This document shows, piece after piece, positions 38,111 to 43,496 of a DNA stretch of 43,496 bases. The DNA is taken from the IMG/VR virus record IMGVR_UViG_2740892274_000012; one strand, written 5' to 3'. The number at the start of each line of letters is the position of its first letter. The first letter of the stretch is position 1. The position numbers and the translations under genes were made by a program. This DNA comes from a virus (taxonomy: Duplodnaviria > Heunggongvirae > Uroviricota > Caudoviricetes). Below the pieces are notes generated by a model. It saw only the letters and a program-made list of their open reading frames with translations, ran no database searches and had not been told where the DNA came from.

Positions 38111-40711
38111 ATGAGCACAAAACCACTCTTCCTGTTACGGAAAGCGAAAAAATCATCCGGTGAACCTGACGTCGTCCTGTGGGCAAGCAACGATTTTGAA
38201 TCGACCTGTGCCACTCTGGACTACCTGATCGTTAAGTCAGGTAAAAAACTGAGCAGCTATTTTAAAGCTGTTGCCACGAATTTTCCTGTCGTTAATGACC
38301 TGCCCGCTGAAGGTGAGATCGATTTTACCTGGAGTGAACGCTATCAACTCAGCAAAGACTCCATGACATGGGAACTAAAACCGGGAGCAGCACCAGACAA
38401 CGCTCACTATCAAGGCAATACCAACGTCAACGGCGAAGACATGACTGAGATTGAGGAGAATATGCTACTCCCAATTTCTGGCCAGGAACTGCCCATTCGT
38501 TGGCTTGCTCAACACGGCAGCGAAAAACCGGTAACGCACGTTTCACGCGACGGACTCCAGGCATTACACATTGCTCGGGCTGAAGAACTACCGGCTGTTA
38601 CTGCCCTGGCTGTTTCCCACAAAACCAGCCTGCTCGACCCGCTGGAAATTCGCGAACTCCACAAACTGGTTCGTGACACTGACAAAGTTTTCCCTAATCC
38701 TGGTAATTCAAACCTGGGACTGATAACTGCTTTTTTCGAAGCATACCTGAACGCTGACTACACCGATCGAGGACTGCTGACAAAAGAGTGGATGAAGGGT
38801 AATCGTGTTTCACACATCACTCGCACGGCTTCCGGTGCTAATGCTGGCGGCGGAAACCTCACCGATCGCGGCGAAGGTTTCGTACACGATCTGACGTCAC
38901 TGGCGCGGGACGTAGCCACTGGCGTACTGGCCCGTTCAATGGATCTGGACATCTATAACCTTCATCCGGCACACGCTAAACGCATTGAGGAAATTATCGC
39001 TGAAAATAAACCGCCCTTTTCTGTTTTCCGCGACAAATTCATCACCATGCCTGGCGGGCTGGATTATTCCCGCGCCATCGTGGTTGCGTCCGTAAAAGAA
39101 GCACCAATTGGGATCGAGGTCATCCCCGCGCACGTCACTGAATATCTGAACAAAGTACTGACTGAAACCGATCATGCCAACCCTGATCCGGAAATCGTGG
39201 ATATTGCCTGCGGTCGCTCCTCTGCCCCGATGCCGCAGCGAGTAACAGAAGAAGGAAAACAGGATGATGAAGAAAAACCGCAACCATCTGGAACAACGGC
39301 AGTTGAACAGGGAGAGGCTGAAACAATGGAACCGGACGCAACTGAACATCATCAGGACACGCAGCCGCTGGATGCTCAGTCACAGGTAAATTCTGTTGAT
39401 GCGAAATATCAGGAACTGCGGGCAGAACTCCATGAAGCCCGGAAAAACATTCCATCAAAAAATCCTGTCGATGCCGATAAATTGCTTGCTGCATCACGTG
39501 GTGAATTTGTTGACGGAATTAGCGACCCGAACGATCCGAAATGGGTAAAGGGGATCCAGACTCGCGATTGTGTGTACCAGAACCAGCCAGAAACGGAAAA
39601 AACCAGCCCGGATATGAATCAACCTGAGCCAGTAGTGCAACAGGAACCGGAAATAGCCTGCAATGCCTGCGGCCAGACTGGCGGGGATAACTGCCCTGAC
39701 TGTGGTGCGGTGATGGGCGACGCAACATACCAGGAAACATTCGATGAAGAGAGTCAGGTTGAAGCTAAGGAAAATGATCCGGAGGAAATGGAAGGCGCTG
39801 AACATCCGCACAATGAGAATGCTGGCAGCGATCCGCATCGCGATTGCAGTGATGAAACTGGCGAAGTCGCAGATCCCGTAATCGTAGAAGACATAGAGCC
39901 AGGTATTTATTACGGAATTTCGAATGAGAATTACCACGCGGGTCCCGGTGTCAGTAAGTCTCAGCTCGATGACATTGCTGATACTCCGGCACTGTATTTG
40001 TGGCGTAAAAATGCCCCCGTGGACACCACAAAGACAAAAACGCTCGATTTAGGAACCGCTTTCCACTGCCGGGTACTTGAGCCGGAAGAATTCAGTAACC
40101 GCTTTATCGTAGCACCTGAATTTAACCGCCGGACAAACTCCGGAAAAGAAGAAGAGAAAGCGTTTCTGAGGGAATGCGCAAGCACAGGAAAAACGGTTAT
40201 CACTGCCGAAGAAGGCCGGAAAATTGAACTCATGTATCAGAGCGTTATGGCTTTGCCGCTGGGGCAATGGCTTGTTGAAAGCGCCGGACACGCTGAATCA
40301 TCAATTTACTGGGAAGATCCTGAAACAGCAATTTTGTGTCGGTGCCGTCCGGACAAAATTATCCCTGAATTTCACTGGATCATGGACGTGAAAACTACGG
40401 CGGATATTCAACGATTCAAAACCGCTTATTACGACTACCGCTATCACGTTCAGGATGCATTCTACAGTGACGGTTATGAAGCACAGTTTGGAGTGCAGCC
40501 AACTTTCGTTTTTCTGGTTGCCAGCACAACTATTGAATGCGGACGTTATCCGGTTGAAATTTTCATGATGGGCGAAGAAGCAAAACTGGCAGGTCAGCTG
40601 GAATATCACCGCAATCTGCGAACCCTGGCTGACTGCCTCAATACCGATGAATGGCCAGCTATTAAGACGTTATCACTGCCCCGCTGGGCTAAGGAATATG
40701 CAAATGACTAA
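38111..40711 (+). CDS. recE: Exodeoxyribonuclease VIII RecE
   Basis: 866-aa ORF; C-terminal nuclease domain (...[39 protein letters not shown]...) recognised as RecE; stop overlaps the recT start. Confidence 0.9.
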
Positions 40712-41513
40712 GCAACCACCAATCGCAAAAGCCGATCTGCAAAAAACTCAGGGAAACCGTGCACCAGCAGCAATTAAAAATAACGACGTGATTAGTTTTA
40801 TTAACCAGCCATCAATGAAAGAGCAACTGGCAGCAGCTCTTCCACGCCATATGACGGCTGAACGTATGATCCGTATCGCCACCACAGAAATTCGTAAAGT
40901 TCCGGCGTTAGGAAACTGTGACACTATGAGTTTTGTCAGTGCAATCGTACAGTGTTCACAGCTCGGACTTGAGCCCGGTAGCGCCCTCGGTCATGCATAT
41001 TTACTGCCTTTTGGTAATAAAAACGAAAAGAGCGGTAAAAAAAACGTTCAGCTAATCATTGGCTATCGCGGCATGATTGATCTGGCTCGCCGTTCAGGTC
41101 AAATCGCCAGCCTGTCAGCCCGTGTTGTCCGTGAAGGTGACGAGTTTAATTTCGAATTTGGCCTTGATGAAAAGTTAATACACCGCCCAGGAGAAAACGA
41201 AGATGCCCCTGTTACCCACGTCTATGCTGTCGCAAGACTGAAAGACGGAGGTACTCAGTTTGAAGTTATGACGCGCAAACAGATTGAGCTGGTGCGCAGC
41301 CAGAGTAAAGCTGGTAATAACGGGCCGTGGGTAACTCACTGGGAAGAAATGGCAAAGAAAACGGCTATTCGTCGCCTGTTCAAATATCTGCCCGTATCAA
41401 TTGAGATCCAGCGTGCAGTATCAATGGATGAAAAGGAACCACTGACAATCGATCCTGCAGATTCCTCTGTATTAACCGGGGAATACAGTGTAATCGATAA
41501 TTCAGAGGAATAA
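40704..41513 (+). CDS. recT: Single-strand annealing protein RecT
   Basis: 269 aa from [65 protein letters not shown]..., recognised as RecT. Confidence 0.9.
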
Positions 41514-41568
41514 TTCAGCCTGGCGGTGTAATGCACCGCCAACTTGAAATATTTTTATGAGAAAAATT

Positions 41569-41763
41569 ATGAGATATGACAATGTTAAACCATGTCCATT
41601 TTGTGGTTGTCCATCAGTAACGGTGAAAGCCATTTCAGGATATTACCGAGCGAAGTGTAACGGATGCGAATCCCGAACCGGTTATGGTGGAAGTGAAAAA
41701 GAAGCACTCGAACGATGAAATAAACGAACCACTGGAAATAATAATGGAGGTGTTCATGTATAA
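41569..41763 (+). pseudogene. ralR: ralR (lar) toxin gene with an in-frame TGA at codon 50
   Basis: ATG at 41569; MRYDNVKPCPFCGCPSVTVKAISGYYRAKCNGCESRTGYGGSEKEALER then TGA at 41716-41718; the same frame continues NKRTTGNNNGGVHV to TAA at 41761-41763, where the ydaC ATG overlaps. Confidence 0.5.
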
Positions 41764-41944
41764 AATTACCGCCACTATTGAAAAGGAAGGTGGCACTCCT
41801 ACTAACTGGACAAGATATTCAAAATCTAAACTAACGAAATCAGAATGCGAAAAAATGCTCTCAGGTAAAAAAGAAGCAGGCGTTTCCAGAGAGCAGAAAG
41901 TAAAACTGATAAATTTTAATTGCGAGAAACTTCAGTCCTCGTGA
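41756..41944 (+). CDS. ydaC: YdaC
   Basis: 62 aa MYKITATIEKEGGTPTNWTRYSKSKLTKSECEKMLSGKKEAGVSREQKVKLINFNCEKLQSS; GGAGG upstream. Confidence 0.6.
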   Translation: MYKITATIEKEGGTPTNWTRYSKSKLTKSECEKMLSGKKEAGVSREQKVKLINFNCEKLQSS

Positions 41945-42043: not shown

Positions 42044-42259
42044 ATGGCACAAGTAATCTTTAATGAAGAGTGGATGGTTGAATACGGCCTGATGCTTCGC
42101 ACTGGTCTGGGGGCCAGACAAATTGAAGCATACCGCCAGAACTGTTGGGTGGAAGGCTTCCACTTCAAACGAGTATCTCCTTTAGGGAAGCCAGACAGTA
42201 AGCGAGGGATTATCTGGTATAACTATCCAAAGATAAATCAGTTTATCAAAGACTCATGA
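42044..42259 (+). CDS. xisR: Excisionase-like protein (XisR / YdaQ)
   Basis: 71 aa [44 protein letters not shown]...; immediately upstream of the integrase gene. Confidence 0.75.
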
Positions 42260-42260
42260 T

Positions 42261-43496
42261 ATGTCTAAATTACCAACAGGTGTCGAGATTCGAGGTAAAT
42301 ACATTCGCATCTGGTTCATGTTTCGAGGAAAACGATGTCGGGAAACATTGAAAGGCTGGGAGGTTACTAACAGTAACATTAAAAAAGCCGGGAATTTAAG
42401 AGCGTTGATAGTTCATGAAATCAATTCCGGTGAGTTTGAGTATTTAAGACGTTTTCCCCAGTCCAGCACTGGGGCAAAAATGGTGACAACGAGGGTCATA
42501 AAAACGTTCGGGGAGCTTTGTGATATCTGGACAAAAATTAAAGAAACAGAGTTAACAACAAACACAATGAAGAAAACGAAATCACAATTAAAAACACTCA
42601 GGATAATAATTTGTGAGAGTACTCCGATATCGCATATTCGTTATAGCGATATCTTAAACTACCGGAATGAACTGCTGCATGGAGAAACGCTTTACCTGGA
42701 TAATCCAAGATCCAACAAAAAAGGAAGAACCGTGCGCACAGTTGATAACTATATCGCCCTGCTCTGTTCGTTGTTACGTTTTGCGTATCAGTCGGGATTT
42801 ATATCAACCAAACCATTTGAAGGAGTAAAGAAATTACAGAGAAACAGAATAAAGCCTGACCCGTTATCTAAAACAGAATTCAATGCATTAATGGAAAGTG
42901 AAAAAGGACAGAGCCAGAACTTGTGGAAATTTGCCGTATACTCCGGGCTTCGTCACGGGGAACTGGCTGCTCTGGCGTGGGAGGATGTGGATTTCGAGAA
43001 GGGAGTTGTGAATGTCAGAAGAAACCTGACGATACTGGATATGTTCGGTCCCCCAAAAACAAATGCGGGGATCCGGACGGTAACACTACTGCAGCCTGCT
43101 CTTGAAGCACTGAAGGAGCAATACAAACTGACCGGGCATCATCGCAAAAGCGAAATCACTTTTTATCATCGGGAGTACGGCAGAACCGAAAAGCAAAAAC
43201 TGCATTTTGTTTTCATGCCCAGAGTGTGTAACGGAAAACAGAAACCTTATTACTCGGTAAGCAGTTTGGGTGCGAGATGGAATGCAGCAGTAAAACGTGC
43301 TGGTATTCGCCGCCGTAATCCGTACCATACGCGGCATACTTTTGCCTGCTGGCTGTTGACGGCAGGAGCGAACCCGGCGTTTATAGCCAGCCAGATGGGG
43401 CATGAAACTGCGCAGATGGTGTATGAAATTTACGGTATGTGGATTGATGACATGAACGACGAACAGGTAGCCATGTTGAATGCGCGGTTATCGTAG
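42261..43496 (+). CDS. intR: Tyrosine integrase IntR
   Basis: 411-aa ORF with a tyrosine recombinase C-terminal catalytic region (...RHTFACWLLTAGANPAFIASQMGHETAQMVYEIYGMW...); stop codon TAG is the last three bases of the window. Confidence 0.9.
   Translation: MSKLPTGVEIRGKYIRIWFMFRGKRCRETLKGWEVTNSNIKKAGNLRALIVHEINSGEFEYLRRFPQSSTGAKMVTTRVIKTFGELCDIWTKIKETELTTNTMKKTKSQLKTLRIIICESTPISHIRYSDILNYRNELLHGETLYLDNPRSNKKGRTVRTVDNYIALLCSLLRFAYQSGFISTKPFEGVKKLQRNRIKPDPLSKTEFNALMESEKGQSQNLWKFAVYSGLRHGELAALAWEDVDFEKGVVNVRRNLTILDMFGPPKTNAGIRTVTLLQPALEALKEQYKLTGHHRKSEITFYHREYGRTEKQKLHFVFMPRVCNGKQKPYYSVSSLGARWNAAVKRAGIRRRNPYHTRHTFACWLLTAGANPAFIASQMGHETAQMVYEIYGMWIDDMNDEQVAMLNARLS

Follow-up and report, generated by a model that had tools for sequence, protein, structure and literature searches.

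A natural premature stop at codon 50 of the prophage gene ralR in Escherichia coli, predicted to inactivate or strongly attenuate the RalR toxin

The ralR (lar) gene of a Rac-type prophage is interrupted by an in-frame TGA at codon 50, in place of the codon for a tryptophan that is invariant among aligned members of the protein family. The gene lies near one end of the window, that is, the whole stretch of viral DNA that was analyzed (43,496 nucleotides; IMG/VR record IMGVR_UViG_2740892274_000012). This change, W50*, is almost certainly a real natural allele. Judging from the conservation of the residues that are removed, it probably inactivates or strongly attenuates RalR, and is best called a severe hypomorph with an incidental, unprogrammed leak rather than a strict null.

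Translation of positions 41569–41763 on the plus strand yields MRYDNVKPCPFCGCPSVTVKAISGYYRAKCNGCESRTGYGGSEKEALER, a stop, NKRTTGNNNGGVHV and a second stop; the codon listing gives 49 sense codons, the TGA as codon 50 and 14 further sense codons that continue in frame to the original TAA (41761–41763). The short open reading frame encodes a zinc ribbon with four cysteines (C9, C12, C30 and C33) and the first seven residues of a C-terminal helix. The base following the premature TGA is A (41719), giving a UGA-A context, and the stranded codons 51–64, which are identical to those of K-12, are translated only upon readthrough of the UGA. On an identical sequence, RefSeq annotates the 150-nt open reading frame as ralR, with the 49-residue product WP_001443846.1. 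The features of the locus and of its surroundings are collected in Table 1.

Table 1. Features of the ralR locus and of neighboring genes in the window.
Feature	Position	Strand	Basis
Short ralR (lar) ORF, 49 sense codons and premature TGA	41569–41718	+	Translation, RefSeq, Pfam, NCBIfam
16-nt RalA pairing site in ralR (AAGTGAAAAAGAAGCA, codons 41–46)	41691–41706	+	Identical to K-12
Arg49 codon CGA (AGA in K-12), synonymous, linked to the TGA	41713–41715	+	K-12 alignment, haplotype counts
Premature TGA in place of invariant Trp50 (TGG)	41716–41718	+	Codon table, K-12 alignment, outgroups
Stranded 3' part of ralR, codons 51–64 (NKRTTGNNNGGVHV), and original TAA	41719–41763	+	K-12 alignment
ydaC/rcbA (DUF1187), intact, 62 aa	41756–41944	+	Pfam PF06688, 132 bits, profile positions 1–61 of 61
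RalA antitoxin sRNA, full length, antisense to ydaC	41762–41940	-	Rfam RF02694, K-12 coordinate transfer
recE, intact, 866 aa	38111–40711	+	ORF list, RefSeq annotation of identical sequence
recT, intact	ends 41513 (recE-recT block 38111–41513)	+	ORF list, RefSeq
xisR, intact	ends 42259 (xisR-intR block 42044–43496)	+	ORF list, RefSeq
intR, intact, 411 aa, ends exactly at window end	42261–43496	+	ORF list, RefSeq

Over the length of the gene, 193 of 195 nucleotides are identical to ralR of K-12 MG1655 (b1348), and because only two bases differ, the orthology is certain and a chance match can be dismissed. The differences are a synonymous change at 41713 (AGA to CGA, Arg49) and the change at 41718 that converts TGG to TGA; the K-12 product is the same sequence with tryptophan at position 50, and is 64 residues long. 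An earlier note, made from the DNA letters alone, had placed the stop at codon 50, followed by 14 sense codons, a TAA and an overlap with ydaC, and had given RalR as a 64-residue protein with Trp (TGG) at that position. Translation and the codon table agree with the first set of statements at every coordinate, and K-12 MG1655 agrees with the second; codon 50 is TGG in the K-12 alignment, so the reference does not also stop there.

The segment 41500–41990 differs from K-12 at four places: the two ralR codons, a run of T's and the end of ydaC. The T-run (41552–41556), immediately upstream of the ribosome-binding region of ralR, is one base shorter than in K-12, with five T's in the window and in the O157 strain TW14588 and six in K-12. 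At 41942–41944, ydaC ends in TGA in the window (62 residues), where K-12 has AGA and a 69-residue protein. The gene also ends at 62 residues in Salmonella, in a divergent E. coli allele and in O157 and O145, and this is the form that the 61 positions of the DUF1187 Pfam profile match; by this comparison, the 69-residue RcbA of K-12 is a derived stop-loss variant.

At codons 49–50, the divergent E. coli allele has AGA-TGG, Salmonella enterica CGG-TGG and Citrobacter CGT-TGG. Because all of these outgroups have TGG, the comparison indicates that TGG is the ancestral state and TGA the derived one. Intact 64-residue CGA-TGG alleles were fetched from E. coli O145 RM12275-C1 and VG48B2, two of the 66 records of that haplotype; each carries an additional SNP at one edge of the 72-nt query. 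Since E. coli still has intact CGA-TGG alleles, the TGA is a single G-to-A step from a living haplotype, as the earlier note had supposed in proposing one such change. An origin in two steps, with no intermediate for the linked changes, was ruled out by the RM12275-C1 and VG48B2 alleles.

Could the short form instead be ancestral, and the 64-residue K-12 protein a derived extension? The stop-loss of K-12 in the neighboring rcbA (69 versus 62 residues) does mean that K-12 is not always the ancestral state, but Salmonella, Citrobacter and the divergent E. coli allele all have TGG followed by Asn-Lys/Arg-Arg, and the W-N-x-R motif is invariant in the family; the outgroup comparison rules out the short form as ancestral. 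Recoding of the UGA, for example as selenocysteine, is just as implausible, no hairpin being found after the UGA where a bacterial SECIS would be expected. The probability left for either of these readings is negligible.

The allele is widespread. A 601-nt query around ralR was matched at 100% identity by no fewer than 40 independent complete genomes of E. coli, among them Shiga-toxin-producing strains of O26, O103 and O111 as well as isolates from humans, cattle, a bird and creek water; the O157:H7 strain TW14588 also carries the ralR allele of the window. Haplotypes at codons 49–50 were counted in complete genomes with 72-nt queries, for which only exact full-length matches should reach 99% identity, although the counts are approximate in that the ≥99% band can take in shorter perfect alignments. 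The CGA-TGA haplotype of the window was found in about 310 complete genomes, AGA-TGG (K-12) in about 1120 and CGA-TGG in 66 (≥99% records), whereas AGA-TGA was found in none. The window haplotype is thus present in about 310 of the roughly 1,720–1,880 ralR-bearing complete E. coli genomes, approximately one sixth, and in about 6% of 5,426 complete E. coli genomes. The exact 49-residue protein occurs on at least 1000 contigs in a collection of public proteins, and is entered in RefSeq (as "MULTISPECIES") and in UniRef.

These numbers contradict the possibility, left standing in the earlier note, that the TGA is a sequencing or assembly error and the true base G. Single-base errors do occur, and nothing more specific speaks in favor of one here; against it stand the 601-nt identity, the matching haplotypes, the contigs with the exact protein and the linkage to CGA. 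Because the TGA is always linked to CGA, with AGA-TGA absent, it is an inherited haplotype and not a random error. An error in the window was therefore rejected, with next to no probability remaining for it.

What does the 49-residue product lack? Among 1.84 billion representative proteins searched exhaustively, 909 relatives were found; a word-indexed protein search gave close relatives only, and the family alignment was built from the exhaustive search. In this alignment of 56 single-domain Lar-family members (31–63% identical to RalR), no position is invariant except C9, P10, C12, C30, C33, W50, N51 and R53, so that the premature stop costs three of the eight family-invariant residues. None of the 56 aligned members ends before the W-N-x-R motif, and among the best 150 of the 909 relatives the matched stretch nearly always reaches RalR residues 53–55. 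In close relatives from Salmonella and Citrobacter, R-W-N-K/R-R is retained and the tail that follows has diverged. Many other Lar-domain relatives (P0052, P0057–P0066, P0073 and others) are 100–360 residues long, with two to six tandem Lar domains, an architecture that is not discussed in the RalR literature examined.

An AlphaFold2 model built from the 56-member alignment (mean pLDDT 80.5) contains a beta-hairpin (residues 17–22 and 25–30) and a single helix (43–53), with a pLDDT of about 90 up to residue 50 and low confidence for residues 54–64. According to this model, the stop would remove the last four residues of the helix, that is, its last turn, together with the non-conserved tail. 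The score for Pfam Lar_restr_allev (PF14354) falls from 53.5 to 39.0 bits on truncation (cutoff 28.6, still passed), and that for TIGR03655 from 55.3 to 40.3 bits (cutoff 39.6, barely passed). Against the NCBIfam RalR equivalog NF007260, the 49-residue product scores 126.9 bits over model positions 1–49 of 64, and because this clears the cutoff of 113, the pipeline names it RalR without comment.

Structural databases offered little on activity. The PDB contains no sequence relative of RalR, and hence no solved structure of one; its partial matches to the chitin-binding protein CbpD (E = 0.0023 and 0.016) were weak and taken as spurious. Foldseek with the RalR model returned generic zinc ribbons only (E ≥ 0.27), which are uninformative in this respect. 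Mutational data for the helix come from K-12 RalR: changing residues 43–46 from EKEA to AIAE abolished toxicity, in a study in which no truncation was tested (Guo et al., 2014; PMC4041452). No relevant paper was found in a literature search for truncated ralR or the 49-residue protein, and Lar is absent from a 2025 EcoSal review on restriction-modification.

Two observations run counter to inactivation: the product retains the zinc ribbon and the greater part of the helix and still passes the RalR and Lar model cutoffs, and the allele is found often and in several lineages. They would suit a 49-residue protein that is a functional short isoform kept by selection, either toxic or active in alleviation only (a separation of function). 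Such an isoform could account for the presence of the allele in about one sixth of ralR carriers and in several major lineages, for the intact ribbon, and for a RefSeq entry that bears no pseudogene flag. It would nevertheless have to function without three of the eight family-invariant residues and without the end of its only helix, an arrangement seen in none of the 56 aligned single-domain members, and in a protein whose toxicity is abolished by mutation of that helix (PMC4041452); in a silent prophage gene carried along by clonal lineages, a loss that is neutral or slightly advantageous would also be expected to become frequent. A selected short isoform is, on balance, quite improbable. 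Within codons 1–49, the truncated allele shows only the rare variants P15R, A21S and N5D, with no further decay in its main haplotype; at 147 nt, these codons are too short for dN/dS, so that decay and a still useful short form look alike by this measure.

A second route to retained function would be leakage through the stop. UGA followed by A is reported to be the context most prone to misreading by tRNA-Trp in E. coli (PMC5289835), and in K-12 reporters UGA readthrough was about 2% at 37 °C and about 4% at 25 °C, at a level set by competition between Trp-tRNA and RF2 (PMC10570021). Because tryptophan would be inserted, readthrough would regenerate the exact wild-type RalR of 64 residues. Readthrough of the window UGA at a level of a few percent is plausible. 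The RF2 of K-12 is unusually weak, and termination is better in wild strains; readthrough in natural carriers is therefore probably lower than in K-12.

No stimulatory or SECIS-like structure was found 3' of the UGA: the segment 41700–41775 folds at -6.2 kcal/mol (z = +0.95 relative to shuffled sequences), and its only stem sits over the ydaC start. The in-frame stop is not conserved among relatives either, since TGG is present in every outgroup and in the majority of E. coli alleles. In the absence of a recoding signal, nothing points to programmed readthrough.

It may still be asked whether misreading of UGA-A by Trp-tRNA supplies a meaningful low dose of wild-type RalR, making the allele a dosage-tuned toxin whose dose perhaps varies with temperature or growth state. 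The misreading-prone context and the reporter values speak for this, as do the restoration of the ancestral residue by the inserted Trp and the 14 downstream codons that are unchanged from K-12. These codons, however, share their sequence with the ribosome-binding site and start of ydaC and are close to the 3' end of RalA, and this explains their conservation without any readthrough. Moreover, the stop is followed by no stimulatory RNA structure, the readthrough figures are those of K-12, and G-to-A at TGG is the commonest route to a nonsense codon, so that design is unnecessary. A tuned dose is accordingly unlikely, and an attenuated or inactive RalR with incidental leakage remains the preferred reading.

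The rest of the locus is intact. Against the Rfam model RF02694, RalA scores 225.1 bits (gathering score 170) over model positions 1–179 of 179. The pairing segment of RalA is the complement of 41863–41878, which forms a direct repeat with the pairing site in ralR (14 of 16 positions identical, 11 of them contiguous), matching the 16-nt ralR/RalA complementarity with 11 contiguous positions described in PMC4041452. The site ends 10 nt 5' of the premature stop. An effect of the SNPs on RalA pairing was rejected, as both lie outside the intact 16-nt site, 7 and 12 nt 3' of it.

Downstream, the ydaC ATG at 41756 overlaps the former end of ralR (ATGTATAA), and ydaC has its own Shine-Dalgarno sequence, GGAGG, at 41746–41750. 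Translation of ralR now ends 37 nt before this ATG, whereas the full-length frame terminated on top of it; any coupling to ydaC by termination-reinitiation is probably reduced. Upstream, a G+C-rich inverted repeat at 41522–41540 (GGCGGTG, 5-nt loop, CACCGCC), identical in K-12, lies between the recT stop and ralR, and could be a candidate terminator or RNA-stability hairpin that separates the two genes.

The gene order recE-recT-ralR-ydaC-xisR-intR is that of the integrase-proximal end of the K-12 prophage Rac, and the downstream end of the window is the integrase end of a Rac-type prophage, adjoining ttcA in matching genomes. Positions 1–37000 contain many large minus-strand open reading frames of up to 1077 residues. 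Large late-gene open reading frames are present in the window, and its first 24 kb share about 99% identity with genomes (for example NCTC9082 and NCTC10444) in which trkG, tail fibre J, tape-measure and terminase genes are annotated. The window is a Rac-type lambdoid prophage far fuller than the 23-kb remnant of K-12.

Other natural E. coli alleles of ralR also alter the invariant motif: W50S (26 member sequences), N51D (339 contigs) and R53Q (360 contigs), and W50* is found on an N5D background as well (9 contigs). These variant alleles are represented by the related proteins P0031, P0021, P0019 and P0003. The cysteines are untouched among the ralR variants listed, which cover 15 of 684 cluster members; from these 15, RalR may have been weakened recurrently. 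P0040, a 67-residue E. coli protein, fuses RalR residues 1–46 with the 21 C-terminal residues of YdaC, and the 16-nt RalA/ralR repeat is exactly where the two are joined. It fits a repeat-mediated deletion of 172 bp (41691–41706 / 41863–41878); such a deletion would also take away the 3' part of RalA with its pairing segment. P0043, also from E. coli, is another ralR-ydaC fusion, joined after residue 45.

Taken together, one G-to-A transition has made the invariant Trp50 codon a UGA, and ribosomes release a 49-residue product that keeps the zinc ribbon and has lost the end of the helix with W-N-x-R. This product would most likely be inactive or strongly weakened, leaving a locus in which an intact RalA sRNA is partnered with a probably disabled toxin, with the pairing site, ydaC and recET/xis/int unchanged. 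A low level of wild-type RalR would still arise where Trp-tRNA now and then misreads UGA-A.

Which activity would be lost depends on the function of RalR, which is disputed: it has been described as a DNase toxin (PMC4041452) and, according to PMC6158711 in its citation of King & Murray (1995), as acting in restriction alleviation. Because of this dispute, "loss of function" cannot be tied to a single activity. A more speculative and rather doubtful proposal is that the W50-to-UGA-A change is a built-in attenuator, with temperature- and growth-dependent restoration of RalR in a small share of translation events, or that the 49-residue form separates alleviation from toxicity. If the attenuator were real, then together with W50S, N51D, R53Q and the ralR-ydaC fusions it would mean that lineages repeatedly tune RalR down while keeping RalA and everything else in the module.

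The practical impact is modest. About one sixth of ralR-bearing complete E. coli genomes, including O157:H7, O26, O103 and O111 STEC, encode a RalR without the invariant C-terminal motif, and databases name the 49-residue form as an active toxin, which misleads annotation-based counts of toxin-antitoxin systems. Results obtained with K-12 RalR/RalA (fosfomycin response, toxicity and restriction alleviation) are risky to extend to carrier strains. The allele is also a natural test of the need for W-N-x-R in RalR/Lar activity, and as such bears on the disputed function of the protein.

How does the allele compare with known systems? The closest is the RalR/RalA type I toxin-antitoxin system of K-12 Rac (b1348/b4714; Guo et al., 2014, PMC4041452), with which the window shares the locus, the gene order, the pairing repeat and RalA. 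Its ralR is orthologous, lies between recT and ydaC and has the antisense RalA and the pairing site, but the full-length 64-residue frame is absent: the product has 49 residues instead of 64, and is without W50-N51-K52-R53 and the tail. Toxicity or DNase activity that RalA neutralizes with Hfq, a further trait of the system, has been assayed for the 64-residue K-12 RalR only (PMC4041452). The window product is identical to the multispecies RefSeq protein WP_001443846.1 (49 residues, [quoted passage not shown]). This protein is annotated at the matching position in E. coli E2865 and O157:H7 TW14588, and its record gives no hint of truncation and has no partial or pseudogene flag.

With the Lar family (PF14354, TIGR03655), the window product shares the CxxC...CxxC zinc ribbon (CPFCG ... 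C..C) and the helix, and it passes both cutoffs; unlike all 56 aligned members, in which W-N-x-R closes the domain, it ends just before this motif, so that the helix end is missing. Within the family, only K-12 Lar is known to alleviate restriction by the type I enzyme EcoKI and to enhance modification (King & Murray, 1995, as cited in PMC6158711), a role that is disputed by PMC4041452. The allele also resembles decayed chromosomal type I toxins such as the inactive hok copies of K-12 (PMC4041452), in which a simple lesion has knocked out the toxin but left the locus and its antitoxin RNA in place. It differs from them in that the lesion is a single leaky nonsense codon, that it coexists with intact alleles and that its inactivity is inferred. 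Overall, W50* is a variant that RefSeq and UniRef already list; it belongs to a known system and does not represent a new kind of feature.
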